This document shows, in pieces, positions 8,798-52,085 of a DNA stretch of 64,000 nucleotides. The translations under genes and the position numbers were made by a program. Source of the stretch: Acidobacteriota bacterium (GTDB lineage: Bacteria > Acidobacteriota > UBA890 > WLXD01); assembly GCA_965205505.1 (NCBI GenBank), contig CBDBHB010000007.1, positions 1 to 64,000 of the forward strand, given 5' to 3'. Every line of letters starts with the position of its first letter. The first letter of the stretch is position 1. The notes beneath the pieces are model-generated. The model was not told where the DNA came from. It searched no databases and saw nothing but the letters and a program-made list of their open reading frames with translations.

Positions 8798-9637
8798 ATG
8801 ATAGCTTATAGCATCTTCAACAATTGTTGGCCTTGGTTTAACGTGTTTTCACGACTCAACAATATTTTGACGATTCAAAAGACAGTCTCATATCTTCTTG
8901 CTGCTCTTGTCGGGCTGGCACTGTCTGCAAGCGCGGCGGACGCGCAGAGCCTCCGTGGCAGCCGCAGCTCGATGGACCGCCAGAACCACCAGGCTAGCGT
9001 GCACGACTTCACGTTCATGCGCGACGGAACGCACGTTTCCCGGTTCGTAAGCGCCGGCTTGCTGGTGCAGCTGCGCGGCAATCGCGACTACACCCTCAAG
9101 GATCTCTCATACCCCTACGCGCGGCCGGAGGTAAAGCTCTTCACCGAGCGGTTGGCGGCGCAGTTTCGCGCCGCCTGCGGCGAGCAACTGGTGGTCACCA
9201 GCCTGACGCGCCCGCAAACCGGTCAGCCGCGCAACGCATCGCCCCGGTCGGTACACCCGACCGGGATGGCAATCGACCTGCGGCGGCACAACAAGCCGTC
9301 GTGTCGTAGCTGGCTCGAGAGAATCCTGCTGTCGCTCGAAGAGCGCGGCGTGCTCGAGGCCGCGGCCGAGAAACACCCGCCGCACTACCACGTGGCGCTG
9401 TTCCCACGCCAGTATGCCGAGTATGTGCGGCAACTTGTCGGCCGGTCGAGTCCGCGTTCCGGCACCGGATTCACCGATGTCGTGGCCTACAGAGTGAGTC
9501 GTAGTGACACGCTCTGGAGAATCGCGCAGAACCACGGCACAACGACCGACCGTATCCAGTCCAACAACGCGCTGCAGTCGACGCGCATCTACCCCGGCCA
9601 AGTTCTTCAGGTTCCAGTTCCGAGCCGACGGAAATAG
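8798..9637 (+). CDS. Secreted M15/LAS-like peptidase (DUF5715-like) with C-terminal LysM domain
   Basis: Signal peptide ending ADA-Q; SLTR...SVHPTGMAIDL...HYHV zinc motif; LysM YRVSRSDTLWRIA...IYPGQVL. Likely start is TTG at 8867. Confidence 0.8.
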   Translation: MIAYSIFNNCWPWFNVFSRLNNILTIQKTVSYLLAALVGLALSASAADAQSLRGSRSSMDRQNHQASVHDFTFMRDGTHVSRFVSAGLLVQLRGNRDYTLKDLSYPYARPEVKLFTERLAAQFRAACGEQLVVTSLTRPQTGQPRNASPRSVHPTGMAIDLRRHNKPSCRSWLERILLSLEERGVLEAAAEKHPPHYHVALFPRQYAEYVRQLVGRSSPRSGTGFTDVVAYRVSRSDTLWRIAQNHGTTTDRIQSNNALQSTRIYPGQVLQVPVPSRRK

Positions 9638-9641
9638 GCCA

Positions 9642-9917
9642 CTAGTGGTCTGTAACAGATGATCGTTGCGTATCGTGGTGGCGAAATGGGTCCGGATGCC
9701 AGGCGCGACGACGAGACGATGTTTGCCCATCTTGGAGGAGGAGCAACGCCGCAGACGGGCCGATTTCGCCGCCATCCTCCGGACAGATGGGCAGTTGCGG
9801 GCGATATCGGCGTTGCGCCTCGTCGACGATGCCCTCTGCATCGCCTTCCTCGCCGCGCCTTGATCTCACCCGCAAATCCCATCTGCGATAGGCAACGATC
9901 ATCTGCTACAGGCCACT
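9642..9917. repeat. 276-bp palindromic MITE-like repeat with 34-bp CTAG-ended terminal inverted repeats (copy 1); final AG displaced to 11324-11325 by the IS
   Basis: Left TIR CTAGTGGTCTGTAACAGATGATCGTTGCGTATCG (9642-9675) matches the reverse complement of 9886-9917+AG with 3 mismatches; second copy at 50320-50595. Confidence 0.85.
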
Positions 9918-9931
9918 TCTATGAGAAGGCC

Positions 9932-10177
9932 TAGTTCGGTCAAGGGCAATGTGGTGGCCAGCGAAGAATCGATCTGCACGCCATGCTCCTATTCGCACTC
10001 TGGTGGACGAGGATTCAGGTCGTCCGGTGCATTCTGGGGTCCGTCCCGATTCGAGGCGCTGCAATCTAGCTGCCGAGCTCGAAGCTCGTAGTGACCTTCG
10101 CAGTCGCCCGGACCGGGCGGTCAGATCGATAACCGTTGGGTCGCGTCGCCCTACCGACCTCCTGGTTGCGGGTTAGT
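9932..10177 (-). ncRNA. Putative bridge/seek RNA region of IS copy 1
   Basis: Non-coding region 3' of the transposase with stem, internal loop and hairpin (10055-10108); loop strands match the target halves; exact RNA ends unknown. Confidence 0.7.
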
Positions 10178-11224
10178 TCATGCTGCTGAAACCTCTACAG
10201 GTGCGCGCAACGGTTCGTACTCGTCTCCACTCAGCCACAGTCGGTGCAGCACAACGGCGAGCTTACGGGCGACAGCAACTGCTGCCTTTTTGTTGCCATG
10301 AGGACCACCGCGTCCGGCCAGCTTGAGCCCCCAGCGTCTGAGCTCAGTATCGGGCCCGAAGGGGCCCAGGATGTAATGCGCCGAGCCCACCAACAGGCGT
10401 CGGAGCATTTTGTCGCCCGCCTTGGTTATTCGTAGCGCAGGGTCCTTGTCCCCCGACTGCCGTTTCTTCGGTCTCAGTCCCAGGTACGGGCCCACGGCTC
10501 TGGAGGTATTGAACCGCTCCGGCTCCTCGAGCGTCAGCACATACGCCAGTGCGGTCAGAGCTCCGACCCCGGCCACTTGCTGGAGCTGCTGTGTCTCCGG
10601 GTATCGCCCCTGGCACAGCTGCACGATCTGACGCTCGTATTGCTGGATGTTGCCCGTCAGCATGGCGATCGTTTCAAGCACCGGCTCGAGCGCTCCCTTG
10701 AGCCGCTCCGGTATGTGCTCTGGCGCGGTGCGCGCGAACGCCGGCGTCGAGCACCTGGGAATACGACAACCGGCCGACTTGACCGCACCACGCACATGGC
10801 TCACCAACTGCGTGCGGCTCTTTACCAGAGCATCTCGGCTCCGAATCACGGCTAGATCCGCTCGCGCTTGTCTGCCTCGATGCTGCACCGTCTTAAGCAG
10901 CTTTGGGTCCATTCTGCCCACTCGTGCCAGGTGCTCGGCATCCAACCGGTCGGTCTTGTCGTGCTCGCCATAGATCAGCTTCAGCCGCCTCGGGTTAGCC
11001 ACCAGCACCTCATGACCCAGTTGCTTCAACTGCTCACTCATCCACGGCGAGTGCGTTCCAACCTCCAGCACTACTCGAGCGGGCTCCTCGCACCCGAACC
11101 GCCTCGCCAGCCCCTCCGGGCTCGTCCTCACCCGCCCTTCCTCCATCACCCTGCCCTTACTGTCGAGCACGCACATACGGCTGTACCGGTCGCTTACGTC
11201 CAGTCCAATCGTTACACTTGTCAT
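10178..11224 (-). CDS. IS110-family DEDD recombinase/transposase
   Basis: RuvC-like IGLDVS, VLEVG, KTDRLDA; C-terminal YLGLRP...RQSG with the catalytic Ser; AVAVARKLA. Confidence 0.96.
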   Translation of the reverse strand: MTSVTIGLDVSDRYSRMCVLDSKGRVMEEGRVRTSPEGLARRFGCEEPARVVLEVGTHSPWMSEQLKQLGHEVLVANPRRLKLIYGEHDKTDRLDAEHLARVGRMDPKLLKTVQHRGRQARADLAVIRSRDALVKSRTQLVSHVRGAVKSAGCRIPRCSTPAFARTAPEHIPERLKGALEPVLETIAMLTGNIQQYERQIVQLCQGRYPETQQLQQVAGVGALTALAYVLTLEEPERFNTSRAVGPYLGLRPKKRQSGDKDPALRITKAGDKMLRRLLVGSAHYILGPFGPDTELRRWGLKLAGRGGPHGNKKAAVAVARKLAVVLHRLWLSGDEYEPLRAPVEVSAA

Positions 11225-11321
11225 CGGCCAACCTCCTTGGGCTTCGAGCCCGTTACGTTTGAAGAAACGTTTGCAGAGCCGTCAGGCTACTGCGTTCAGG
11301 AGGTTGGCCTTCTCATCTCAT

Positions 11322-12485
11322 CTAGTTTCCGGGCGCAGCGACTCGACGAAACAACGCGTCGTAGGACGATGCCAGGTGATCCCAGCCGTGGCGCCGCGCT
11401 ACCTCGGCGGCCAGACCATCCGTTCCGGCTCGCCAACGCGCCGGATCCCGCAGCACACTCACGAGCTTGCGTTCCAGCTCGTCGCTGCCGACGTACAGGC
11501 ACAGCGAGTGCGTCCGCTCCGGTAGAACCTCCGGATAACTGAGTCGCCGCGGCACGAGGGGAATCGCCCCGGCGGCAACCGCCTCCAGCACGCTGATGCC
11601 GTAGAACTCGTGCCGGGTCGTCGATACCACTACCGTCGCCCTACGAAGCAGGGCAGCATATTCGCGACGTGGGAGGAAGCCGGAGTGGACCACCCGGTTG
11701 CCGAGCTCGCGCATGCCCGTCTCGAAGACGCTTGGCACGCCACCAGGACATTCCCCGCAGAGTGCCACCCGAAAGGGCACCTCCTGCGCCGCCACGTTGC
11801 GCAACGCAGCGAAGAACGCGTCGGGGTTCTTGTCGTACTCCCACCGGTGATTCCACAGCACCAGGGGCGGCTCATCGCACCCCTCTGCGTGACGCTCGGT
11901 GTGCCCGCCGGCGGCGGTGCGGAGATCATCGACTCGAATGCCGGGATATACCACCTCGCTCCGATCGCGCACTTGCTGCACACAGTCGAGCTCGCGCTCG
12001 TCGGGCATCGCCTCGAGGAACCGAGGAAGCCTCGCGAGTAGCTCATCACGATGGAACGCCGAGTTGAACACGACGCGGTCGGCAGCCAGCATCGATACGA
12101 GGTTCACAAAGCCGAAGTGCTCGTTCCCCGGTCCACGCTGGTGCTGTCGCCGTCGTTCGCGAACGTCGTCCGGGAGTGGGTAGGTGAGCTGGTTCTCGTG
12201 CATGTACAAGACGAGTGGCACCGGCGGCTTGTGCCAGCGAATCAATGCCAGAAACGTCGTCACGTCGAGCATGTCGGTGGCCAGAATCACGTCGACCGGC
12301 TGGAGATCCACATATTGCCGCGCCAGGGTGATCGCCGCCCCACGCATGCGCCACTTCCAAAAGCGGCCGGAAAGCGTGAGCAGCTCGAGGTCGAGCCCGC
12401 TGTGCTCGGCCAGCCCTTCGGCCCATGACGCATGGCTGCCTCCGTGGAATGGAGACAACAAGGCGACGCGGATCGAGGTATCCAA
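11322..12485 (-). CDS. Glycosyltransferase family 4 (DUF3524/GTDC1-like)
   Basis: PFHGGSH, FWKWRMRG, YMHENQLTYP, WNHRWEYDKNP and EFYGISVLEA motifs; stop codon overlaps the IS core/CTAG. Confidence 0.88.
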   Translation of the reverse strand: MDTSIRVALLSPFHGGSHASWAEGLAEHSGLDLELLTLSGRFWKWRMRGAAITLARQYVDLQPVDVILATDMLDVTTFLALIRWHKPPVPLVLYMHENQLTYPLPDDVRERRRQHQRGPGNEHFGFVNLVSMLAADRVVFNSAFHRDELLARLPRFLEAMPDERELDCVQQVRDRSEVVYPGIRVDDLRTAAGGHTERHAEGCDEPPLVLWNHRWEYDKNPDAFFAALRNVAAQEVPFRVALCGECPGGVPSVFETGMRELGNRVVHSGFLPRREYAALLRRATVVVSTTRHEFYGISVLEAVAAGAIPLVPRRLSYPEVLPERTHSLCLYVGSDELERKLVSVLRDPARWRAGTDGLAAEVARRHGWDHLASSYDALFRRVAAPGN

Positions 12486-50319: not shown

Positions 50320-50595
50320 CTAGTGGCCTGTAACAGATGATCGTTGCGTATCGTGGTGGCGAAATGGGTCCGGATGCCAGGCGCGACGACGAGACGATGT
50401 TTGCCCATCTTCGAGGAGGAGCAACGCCGCAGACGGGCCGATTTCGCCGCCATCCTCCGGACAGATGGGCAGTTGCGGGCGATATCGGCGTTGCGCCTCG
50501 TCGACGATACCCACTGCATCGCCTTCCTCTCCGCGCCTTGAGCTTGCCCCCATCTCGTCCCAGCAATATGCAACGAACCTCTGACTCAGGCCACT
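50320..50595. repeat. 276-bp MITE-like palindromic repeat, copy 2, interrupted at its right end by IS copy 2
   Basis: Same length as 9642-9917; about 5 mismatches in the first 221 bp, more divergent in the last 55 bp. Confidence 0.85.
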
Positions 50596-50609
50596 TCTAT
50601 GAGAAGGCC

Positions 50610-50855
50610 TAGTTCGGTCAAGGGCAATGTGGTGGCCAGCGAAGAATCGATCTGCACGCCATGCTCCTATTCGCACTCTGGTGGACGAGGATTCAGGTCG
50701 TCCGGTGCATTCTGGGGTCCGTCCCGATTCGAGGCGCTGCAATCTAGCTGCCGAGCTCGAAGCTCGTAGTGACCTTCGCAGTCGCCCGGACCGGGCGGTC
50801 AGATCGATAACCGTTGGGTCGCGTCGCCCTACCGACCTCCTGGTTGCGGGTTAGT
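50610..50855 (-). ncRNA. Putative bridge/seek RNA region of IS copy 2
   Basis: Identical to 9932-10177 by eye; target-binding loop at 50733-50786. Confidence 0.7.
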
Positions 50856-51898
50856 TCATGCTGCTGAAACCTCTACAGGTGCGCGCAACGGTTCGTACTC
50901 GTCTCCACTCAGCCACAGTCGGTGCAGCACAACGGCGAGCTTACGGGCGACAGCAACTGCTGCCTTTTTGTTGCCATGAGGACCACCGCGTCCGGCCAGC
51001 TTGAGCCCCCAGCGTCTGAGCTCAGTATCGGGCCCGAAGGGGCCCAGGATGTAATGCGCCGAGCCCACCAACAGGCGTCGGAGCATTTTGTCGCCCGCCT
51101 TGGTTATTCGTAGCGCAGGGTCCTTGTCCCCCGACTGCCGTTTCTTCGGTCTCAGTCCCAGGTACGGGCCCACGGCTCTGGAGGTATTGAACCGCTCCGG
51201 CTCCTCGAGCGTCAGCACATACGCCAGTGCGGTCAGAGCTCCGACCCCGGCCACTTGCTGGAGCTGCTGTGTCTCCGGGTATCGCCCCTGGCACAGCTGC
51301 ACGATCTGACGCTCGTATTGCTGGATGTTGCCCGTCAGCATGGCGATCGTTTCAAGCACCGGCTCGAGCGCTCCCTTGAGCCGCTCCGGTATGTGCTCTG
51401 GCGCGGTGCGCGCGAACGCCGGCGTCGAGCACCTGGGAATACGACAACCGGCCGACTTGACCGCACCACGCACATGGCTCACCAACTGCGTGCAGCTCTT
51501 TACCAGAGCATCTCGGCTCCGAATCACGGCTAGATCCGCTCGCGCTTGTCTGCCTCGATGCTGCACCGTCTTAAGCAGCTTTGGGTCCATTCTGCCCACT
51601 CGTGCCAGGTGCTCGGCATCCAACCGGTCGGTCCGTGCTCGCCATAGATCAGCTTCAGCCGCCTCGGGTTAGCCACCAGCACCTCATGACCCAGTTGCTT
51701 CAACTGCTCACTCATCCACGGCGAGTGCGTTCCAACCTCCAGCACTACTCGAGCGGGCTCCTCGCACCCGAACCGCCTCGCCAGCCCCTCCGGGCTCGTC
51801 CTCACCCGCCCTTCCTCCATCACCCTGCCCTTACTGTCGAGCACGCACATACGGCTGTACCGGTCGCTTACGTCCAGTCCAATCGTTACACTTGTCAT
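50856..51898 (-). pseudogene. IS110-family transposase, frameshifted
   Basis: TTGT deleted between 51633 and 51634 relative to copy 1, splitting the gene at KTDRLD into 122-aa and 255-aa ORFs. Confidence 0.9.
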
Positions 51899-52085
51899 CG
51901 GCCAACCTCCTTGGGCTTCGAGCCCGTTACGTTTGAAGAAACGTTTGCAGAGCCGTCAGGCTACTGCGTTCAGGAGGTTGGCCTTCTCATCTCATCTAGC
52001 AGTCACGGGGTCCACCGCGGCGACGCCGGCGGCGAGACACTGGAGCGGACCCGCAGCCGCAGACGCGCCTTGCTACAATCGACGC

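Follow-up and report, generated by a model that had tools for sequence, protein, structure and literature searches.

The window analysed here is a stretch of 64,000 nucleotides from an Acidobacteriota genome (G000:C7:1-64000), and it contains two copies of an insertion sequence (IS) of the IS1111 family, each lying beside one end of a short dispersed repeat which we read as an IS630/Tc1-type miniature inverted-repeat transposable element (MITE). It is very probable that this IS is aimed by its own non-coding RNA at the word AGG[C/T]CACTAG, which is entered between the T and the A and which is mainly supplied by the MITE. The positions of the insertions, the specificity pattern of used and unused sites, the fold of the RNA region and the concurrent change of loop sides and flanks in related elements were all observed in the genome sequences and are described in turn below. 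The coordinates of the features are listed in Table 1.

Insertion sites and the target word

A BLAST search with the IS against the 5.98-Mb genome (nine contigs) returned 33 rows, in which 27 full-length copies and additional truncated ones were found at 98.6-100% identity. All 31 right-end junctions in the genome follow ...CAC-T, thirty of them as AGGCCACT and one as AGGTCACT, and they share the consensus insertion point between the T and the A of AGG[C/T]CACTAG in a single orientation. At the left end, 27 of the 29 junctions read CT followed by AG with the CTAG restored, and of the two exceptions one reads CTAA and the other carries a 5-nt repeat of the IS end. The CTAG is restored because the left end of the IS begins with AG. 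In the window, copy 1 is joined as ...CTACAGGCCAC-T(9917) to TCTATGAGAAGGCC... at one side and as ...CTCATCT(11323) to AG(11324-25) at the other, whereas copy 2 is joined as ...ACTCAGGCCAC-T(50595) to TCTATG... and as ...CATCT(51997) to AG(51998-99). The flanks beyond the AG are unrelated between IS copies, and there is no target duplication: the empty sites carry no extra repeated bases beyond the shared dinucleotide.

The sequence-only reading of this window had placed both copies at the same nucleotide and in the same orientation relative to the repeat, which the junctions (9917/9918 and 50595/50596) bear out. It had also argued for independent insertions, and we agree that the two are separate because the host repeats (92% identical overall, strongly different in the 45 nt adjoining the IS), the IS copies (a 4-bp deletion distinguishes copy 2 from copy 1) and the unrelated right flanks all differ. 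The unoccupied sites that it reported were likewise found, as AGGCCACTAG at one further MITE end on each strand (Table 1).

The word starts with the 7 nt AGGCCAC that terminate the MITE inverted repeat and continues with the TA duplication and the G of CTAG. The cut separates the T from the A in the TA duplication that flanks the MITE, outside the MITE repeat, and the proposals that the IS splits the end of the repeat and thereby immobilises it are not upheld, as the inverted repeat is left untouched and immobilisation found no support. A total of 109 empty AGGCCACTAG words were counted in the genome against 13 expected from base composition.

The flanks of the 31 right-end junctions fall into three groups: 20 are multi-copy repeat ends, involving either MITE end and several subfamilies, five are short stubs resembling repeat ends or 21-bp palindromes, and the remaining six (five distinct flanks) lie in unique DNA with only the 10-bp word in common. 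The genome-wide tabulation of occupied and empty sites that had been called for gave 31 occupied and 111 empty AGG[C/T]CACTAG sites, 142 altogether with an occupancy of about 22%. Under the same copy-number test as was used for the occupied sites, 76 of the empty ones are repeat-associated and 35 are low-copy. The occupancy is 20 of 96 for repeat-associated sites and 11 of 46 for non-repeat sites (Fisher p=0.67), and this equality indicates that the IS recognises the 10-bp word and not the repeat as such, with the MITE providing about 70% of the copies of the word. The earlier suggestion of a guide tuned to a dispersed repeat is therefore retained in part, as the word at the repeat ends is matched by the loop described below, although it is the word and not the repeat that is read. 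Two findings had been named as speaking against that suggestion, namely IS copies at unrelated sites and a repeat that never occurs without the IS; 11 of the 31 junctions do lie in unique DNA or at stubs, but the repeat occurs without the IS both at the 76 empty sites and in genomes of the same genus in which no copy of the IS was found.

Recognition of the hairpin of a repeat end has been proposed for some elements that target repetitive extragenic palindromic (REP) sequences. It could likewise be suggested here that the hairpin or palindrome of the repeat end is what the transposase protein or a host factor reads and that the RNA complementarity is incidental, given that both the repeat ends and the 21-bp AGTGKCCTGnnnCAGGMCACT sequences are palindromic and that 25 of the 31 junctions are placed at ends or stubs of this kind. 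However, the six junctions in unique DNA have the word and no palindrome, the occupancy is equal inside and outside repeats, sister repeats have AGGACACTAG ends that are just as palindromic and yet unused, and the loop sides and flanks co-vary in relatives. We regard this explanation as very unlikely.

The single-base variant AGGACACTAG, which occurs on the ends of sister repeats, is represented by 87 empty sites and no occupied site (p=1e-7), and [C/G/T]GGCCACTAG by 36 empty and no occupied sites (p=9e-4). A third variant, AGACCACTAG, was found at 12 empty sites and no occupied one, which is not significant, whereas the perfect Watson-Crick variant AGGTCACT is occupied once and empty twice. 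The genome thus offers a natural data set on the pairing needed by an IS1111-type guide, with about 22% of the 142 perfect-type sites occupied and none of the 87 sites with one non-wobbling base change. Loose targeting followed by purifying selection, which would leave only those copies that landed at neutral repeat ends, is a further explanation, and the repeat ends are indeed intergenic and neutral and the stop codon of the neighbour of copy 1 is preserved. Selection cannot, however, account for a single phosphodiester bond and a single orientation in 31 of 31 junctions, nor can it separate the AGGCCACTAG from the AGGACACTAG ends of sister repeats, and we consider it highly improbable.

The bases beyond the word were also observed to differ between used and unused sites. 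The two bases after CTAG are CT in five of 28 occupied sites and in none of the 111 empty ones (p=2e-4), while TG was found in one of 28 occupied and 43 of 111 empty sites. All five sites at which CT lengthens the 3' match by two bases are occupied.

One left junction has to be read with care, as C7:1-9917 matches C6:434410-424495 at 99.94% identity as far as the contig end, and the left junctions of copy 1 and of C6:424495 are one event counted twice in the genome. The C6 twin joins through an IS copy to another right flank, which recurs at C6:512431. The duplicated stretch of 9.9 kb reflects either an IS-mediated rearrangement or assembly redundancy, and some flank pairs seem to be exchanged between IS copies, which would be expected from recombination between IS copies or, again, from assembly redundancy. 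This duplicated junction and the shuffled flank pairs might be taken to mean that repeat and IS form a composite unit that moves or duplicates together, or that they are an artefact of collapsed repeats in the assembly. Against this stand the repeat-associated empty sites, the presence of the IS at either MITE end, in several MITE subfamilies and at non-repeat sites, the occurrence of the MITE in same-genus genomes whose search did not reveal the IS, and contigs of other public runs in which the same IS ends are joined to other flanks, so that this explanation is scarcely credible.

Table 1. Coordinates of the IS, the MITE and associated features in the window.
Feature	Position	Strand	Remarks
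IS copy 1, IS1111 family	9918-11323	-	1406 bp; bounds from comparison of occupied and empty sites
IS copy 2	50596-51997	-	1402 bp; 4-bp deletion splits the transposase frame at about residue 90
Left subterminal inverted repeat	11306-11316		11 bp, then outward 7-nt extension 11317-11323; kept in relatives
Right subterminal inverted repeat	9921-9931		11 bp, then outward 3-nt extension 9918-9920
DEDD transposase gene	10178-11224	-	348 aa, intact in copy 1; contains GLRPKKRQSG
TTGACC, -35-like hexamer	9938-9943	-	faces outward near the IS right end
Predicted target-binding hairpin (seekRNA/bridge RNA)	10041-10120	-	outer stems, internal loop, inner hairpin CGAGCU-UCG-AGCUCG
5' loop side AGGUCACUA	10089-10097	-	complementary to target strand TAGTGGCCT, U opposite G once
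3' loop side GCAGCUAGAU	10064-10073	-	equals left-flank positions, CT and AG on either side of the cut, and first bases of the IS left end
Candidate donor guide AAUAGGAGC	9985-9993	-	matches the joined ends, ...ATAGA then AG...
MITE copy 1	9645-9916		272 bp; terminal inverted repeats GTGGTCTGTAACAGATGATCGTTGC... and ...GCAACGATCATCTGCTACAGGCCAC
MITE copy 2	50323-50594		272 bp; different subfamily near the IS-proximal end
Left TA of MITE target-site duplication	9643-9644		inside CTAG
T of right TA duplication	9917		partner A now at 11324, with the IS between
AG of target word	11324-11325		with the last two IS bases restores CTAG and a TAG stop
Unoccupied target word AGGCCACTAG	9636-9645	+	unique flank, TA and first G of MITE copy 1
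Unoccupied target word AGGCCACTAG	50320-50329	-	far end of MITE copy 2

The predicted guide RNA and its relatives

The hallmarks given for the IS1111 family by Siddiquee et al. include subterminal repeats of 11-13 bp, extensions of 7 nt and 3 nt, a longer non-coding region downstream of the transposase gene and a C-terminal motif in the transposase (PMC11187229). In the orientation of its transposase gene, copy 1 begins with the left extension AGATGAG (7 nt) followed by ATGAGAAGGCC and ends with GGCCTTCTCAT followed by the right extension AGA (3 nt), and the two subterminal repeats pair at 11 of 11 positions. DEDD (RuvC-like) transposases of this family have 330-350 aa and a C-terminal PF02371 domain. 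The transposase of copy 1, with 348 aa, matches the Pfam domains DEDD_Tnp_IS110 (PF01548, 1.1e-17) and Transposase_20 (PF02371, 5.7e-17) and the NCBIfam model NF033542, 'IS110 family RNA-guided transposase', with 205.5 bits (cut-off 140). The IS1111 motif GL-P----S(T)G is found in its translation as GLRPKKRQSG, and the non-coding DNA of the IS comprises 263 nt downstream of the gene versus 101 nt upstream. The assignment to the IS1111 family of the IS110 superfamily, the family being already named in the sequence-only reading, is adopted here because the transposase domains, subterminal repeats, extensions, longer downstream region and motif all match.

A hairpin predicted in the downstream region (10120-10041 on the minus strand) has a folding energy of -44.2 kcal/mol and a z-score of -2.6 against shuffles, while the fold of the whole 263-nt region is unexceptional (z -1.55). 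Its internal loop carries AGGUCACUA on the 5' side, the inner hairpin CGAGCU-UCG-AGCUCG, and GCAGCUAGA(U) on the 3' side. The loop is complementary to the terminal word of the repeat, as had been proposed for the RNA region. From the sequence alone, the match to the top strand (AGGUCACUA) lies 5' of the match to the bottom strand (GCAGCUAGAU) and the two overlap at the cut, which is the order described for seekRNAs of the IS1111 type (PMC11187229). The hairpin is identical in the 27 full-length copies save for a single-base deletion (window position 10051) in one of them, and both guide sides are invariant in all 27.

The specificity pattern of the genome fits the predicted guide base by base. 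A single U in the 5' guide faces G at most sites and A at AGGTCACT, and it would face T at the unused AGGACACT. The 3' loop side predicts CT after CTAG in the orientation of the window. Another candidate, GGCCAC at about 9952-9957, was rejected as a guide since it is polymorphic (9 C and 18 G at position 9957), is unconserved in a relative and lies outside the conserved loop.

Related elements were collected from a sample of 401 genomes of the phylum, of which 20, including the genome studied here, contain a match at E<=1e-60. A locus search by a single protein gave one locus, and the relatives were taken from the genome search instead. The nearest relative, in a genome of the same order (G011), is 69% identical in DNA and has the same ends, and its inner hairpin is preserved through compensatory changes. 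In this relative the loop sides read CGGACUCUA and CCGAGUAGAU, and the element is preceded by ...CGGACTCT and followed by ACTC.... Its transposase gene is interrupted by a 2.7-kb insert (G011:C1:3908074-3912196).

The comparison of guides with flanks covered 13-14 relatives that belong to other genomes. Agreement of the 5' loop side with its own flank averages 7.2 of 9 positions, versus 4.2 of 9 for non-cognate flanks, when the register is free to slide by <=4 nt for cognate and non-cognate pairs alike, and none of 20000 permutations of the 14 guide sets scored as high; in a fixed register the values are 3.69 of 8 versus 2.35, with 13 of 20000 permutations as high. The 3' loop side matches its own flank at 4.46 of 6 positions and non-cognate flanks at 1.54 of 6 (0 of 20000 permutations as high). 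These counts were made without L023, L029, L030, L031, L033, L035 and L041, which have no clear subterminal repeat or motif, and the 3' count also without L038 and L001; L025 was left out as its genome is unpublished.

An alignment of the RNA region from 18 sequences supports a consensus fold of 18 pairs in which 93.8% of the cells are paired, compared to 26-48% in slid controls, and in six of the pairs both partners have changed in a compensatory way. The covariation score of 0.267, as against <=0.09 in the slid controls, was reached by none of 500 shuffles. The relatives also have in common a second conserved block in the RNA region, ...GUGCG-AU(A/G)GAA(G/A)C, which looks like a guide for the joined IS ends: in 20 of 21 rows it tracks the right-end extension (AGA or GGA), and in 21 of 21 rows the first two left-end bases (AG or AA). 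With this second block the RNA would have a target part and a donor part, as is the case for bridge RNAs (PMC11208160).

Several observations weigh against an RNA guide of this kind. A scan of 9500-11500 gave no Rfam match at E<=1. The 5' guide has U where most targets need G and thus needs an RNA-DNA G-U wobble, and four of the ten bases on the 3' side (GCAG) are unmatched at most sites. By estimate, an 8 of 9 match taken by itself is expected about 0.2 times by chance in 263 nt; the case rests on the loop position, the specificity pattern and the relatives. Among the relatives, the motif of row L001 was misplaced and scored 3 of 9 in the 5' count, each flank is known from a single copy or a few copies, and the relatives are non-independent so that the permutation counts overstate the significance. 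Finally, neither an RNA nor a circle junction nor an excision product turned up in the contigs of public runs, which cannot show such forms.

A total of 20 listed public runs from 11 studies, including two metatranscriptomes, hold 9300-11900 wholly or partly, all as contigs. Four of them (X1, X4, X12 and X16) were compared, and neither a junction of 11323 to 9918 nor a contig skipping the IS was present, a comparison that is uninformative on rare forms. The contig depth in X1 is 174 over the IS and 5 over the flanks; as this is not a copy number, it was not used. A contig of 1281 nt over 9891-11141 was found in X16, a run from an RNA library, and does not show transcription. Contigs that end at the left end of the IS run into different flanks between runs, and one of these flanks was unseen in the genome studied here.

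The proposed mechanism draws on the one published for the family (PMC11187229, PMC11208160). The guide RNA would be encoded between the stop codon of the transposase gene and the IS right end, with AGGUCACUA on the 5' loop side pairing with one target strand across the cut, GCAGCUAGAU on the 3' side pairing with the other strand, and the second, better conserved part of the RNA matching the joined IS ends. An older and unrelated IS630/Tc1-type MITE, whose inverted repeat ends in ...AGGCCAC, would insert at the TA of CTAG, and a single MITE insertion may thereby create up to two landing pads. The IS would then integrate between the T and the A in a single orientation and without duplication. 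In the target pattern AGGNCACTAGNNNN, C or T at N would be accepted and A rejected, and CT after CTAG would be favoured and TG disfavoured. By analogy with the published relatives, the RNA would be produced and bound by the transposase, and recombination would proceed via a circular intermediate whose abutted ends would read ...CTCATCT followed by TCTATGAG....

The host repeat and the history of the insertions

The host repeat is 272 bp in length with a TA at each side, slightly shorter than the 276 bp assigned to it at first, and has terminal inverted repeats of about 26 nt. The family comprises approximately 160 ends in the genome (<=5 mismatches in 26); 27 of its elements measure 270-279 bp, and there are also longer ones of approximately 350, 450 and 550 bp. 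In the variants of 548-555 bp, an insert of about 278 bp is found at around position 205 of the 272-bp element (G000:C8:899345-899892, C9:1325512-1326066 and others). A separate repeat starting with CTAGTGCTCCTGATCATAAGTACGGTGAC often adjoins the MITE ends, and the 21-bp palindromes, which occur in CTAG flanks, resemble two joined MITE tips (C9:129734-129760, C8:403800-403821).

In 155 ends anchored on the inner repeat, ...AGG[C/A]CAC is followed nearly always by TA and then usually by G. The orthologous locus in a same-genus genome (G004), the one locus for which an empty ortholog was compared, has flanks that are 90-91% identical, neither MITE nor IS, and a single CTAG, and the flank part of the word at 9636-9645 is native DNA there. 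Because this locus lacks both elements and has one CTAG, the MITE must have entered at the TA of CTAG with duplication of the TA.

IS630 prefers CTAG as its insertion site. Two IS630-family elements reside in the genome, one of 1190 bp in two copies and one of about 1145 bp in four copies, both with CTAG flanks (G000:C9:264000-265200 and C9:2198454-2199636; C7:596800-598000), and the first shares the terminal motif of the MITE. The 1190-bp element (NF033545, 272.9 bits; DDE_3 and HTH domains) ends in CTAGTGTCCTGAGTCAG and is the only autonomous element in the genome that is bounded by a terminal motif of the MITE type. It has the terminal TAGTG[G/T]CCTG in common with the MITE, while the remaining repeat differs, and no element of 0.7-3.5 kb in the genome has the full repeat; a search for an autonomous element of 1-3 kb with the 26-nt repeat (<=5 mismatches) likewise found none. 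The repeat is read as an IS630/Tc1-type MITE because of the TA duplication at CTAG and the terminal motif common to the resident IS630-family element.

The nested elements are bordered on one side by a DUF5715/LysM gene, whose end lies at 9637, and on the other by a QTMAN_N-domain glycosyltransferase gene on the minus strand (11322-12485). The TAG stop codon of the latter (11322-11324) is part of the CTAG at which first the MITE and later the IS inserted; each of the two insertions restores the TAG and the glycosyltransferase frame ends at the same codon. The suggestion that these landing sites are harmless is in line with this and with the dispersed, mostly intergenic occurrence of the word.

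Matches to the MITE were found in three same-genus genomes (65, 70 and 49) and in a fragmented fourth (5), and diverged copies occur in the family and the order. In the three same-genus genomes CAGGCCACTAG occurs 120, 111 and 57 times versus 7-12 for a reversed control, whereas in the genome of the nearest IS relative, whose guide differs, it does not occur. The IS itself was absent at E<=1e-30 from a search of the four same-genus genomes. The simplest reading is that the IS arrived recently and spread to about 31 copies in a genome that held many of its pads beforehand, because the search of the same-genus genomes found the MITE but not the IS and the IS copies are nearly identical.

Many of the IS copies carry a broken transposase frame. 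A 4-bp deletion (window positions 10956-10959, not in a homopolymer) is present in 12 of the 27 full-length copies and a 1-bp deletion (10815) in five, and together they break the frame in 16 copies, one of which has both. A seventeenth broken copy, at C9:1897444, has other indels, which leaves 10 of the 27 intact. The deletion-bearing copies occupy different sites while the guide sides of their RNA loop are unchanged, and since they keep an intact RNA region at these different sites, it is suggested that frame-broken copies have moved in trans, with gene conversion as a possible alternative. As a tentative and somewhat doubtful extension, the guide of this IS may have become tuned to a junction made by an unrelated family of TA-duplicating transposons whose spread keeps making pads, and copies that bear the RNA without a transposase, moved in trans, may add guide RNA to the pool.

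Comparison with known systems

The targeting of dispersed repeats and of the inverted repeats of other transposons is already established for the IS1111 family, and this knowledge is unchanged by the present case. The presence of an IS1111 element in a MITE is also not new in kind. IS1111 of Coxiella burnetii is described as inserting in a REP inside the MITE QMITE2 in 20 of 21 copies, and there too a pre-existing MITE, older and conserved between strains, hosts nearly all copies (PMC5896051). The site in Coxiella differs in being an internal palindrome of the MITE, and QMITE2 has direct repeats of 7-11 nt in the same account, whereas the site found here consists of the outermost 7 nt of the inverted repeat with the TA and CTAG, and one third of the junctions lie outside multi-copy repeats. 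A literature search, supplementary files being outside its reach, returned no report of an IS1111 element at the ends of an IS630-type MITE. What is particular to this case is the site at the junction of an IS630-type MITE end with TA and CTAG, the sharpness of the specificity data across the genome and the lopsided pairing of the guide.

Targeting of Tn21-family repeats by the IS1111 family was reportedly the subject of a study by Partridge and Hall in 2003. The target of the transposon-targeting IS1111 element is said to be a repeat of 38 bp found in large plasmid-borne resistance transposons. This element resembles the present one in being aimed, in a single orientation, at another transposon's terminal inverted repeat, whereas the MITE described here is chromosomal and the cut is positioned outside the repeat.

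REPs are described as the targets of the IS110/IS1111 elements ISPa11, ISPpu9, ISPpu10 and IS621 (PMC1525189; PMC12288879; PMC11187229), and the IS1111 family as targeting both attC sites and REPs (PMC11187229). Such elements resemble the present one in having a dispersed intergenic repeat as a safe pad, an invariant AG/CT crossover and no target duplication. REPs are not, however, ends made by a TA-duplicating transposon, whereas the pad here is the junction of a repeat end and its insertion site. That the guide is set to a word made by another transposon family bears on how such elements find safe sites and spread in a new host; the word is abundant only in the host genus (57-120 copies in three genomes, against 0 in that of the nearest relative).

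The predicted RNA is similar to the seekRNAs of ISEc11, ISPa11 and ISKpn4 and to the bridge RNA of IS621 in being encoded downstream of the transposase gene (PMC11187229; PMC11208160), in forming a hairpin of 70-100 nt with the top-strand match 5' of the bottom-strand match and an overlap at the cut, in its natural reprogramming between relatives and in having a second part that matches the element ends. It differs in being known from its sequence alone and in its lopsided match, with 9 nt on one side and 4-6 nt on the other. A junction promoter has been described for the IS1111 family (PMC11187229; PMC12288879), and the TTGAC near the right end of the present IS, which is conserved in 21 of 21 aligned relatives, fits such a promoter and would, by analogy with this published work, play the same role.

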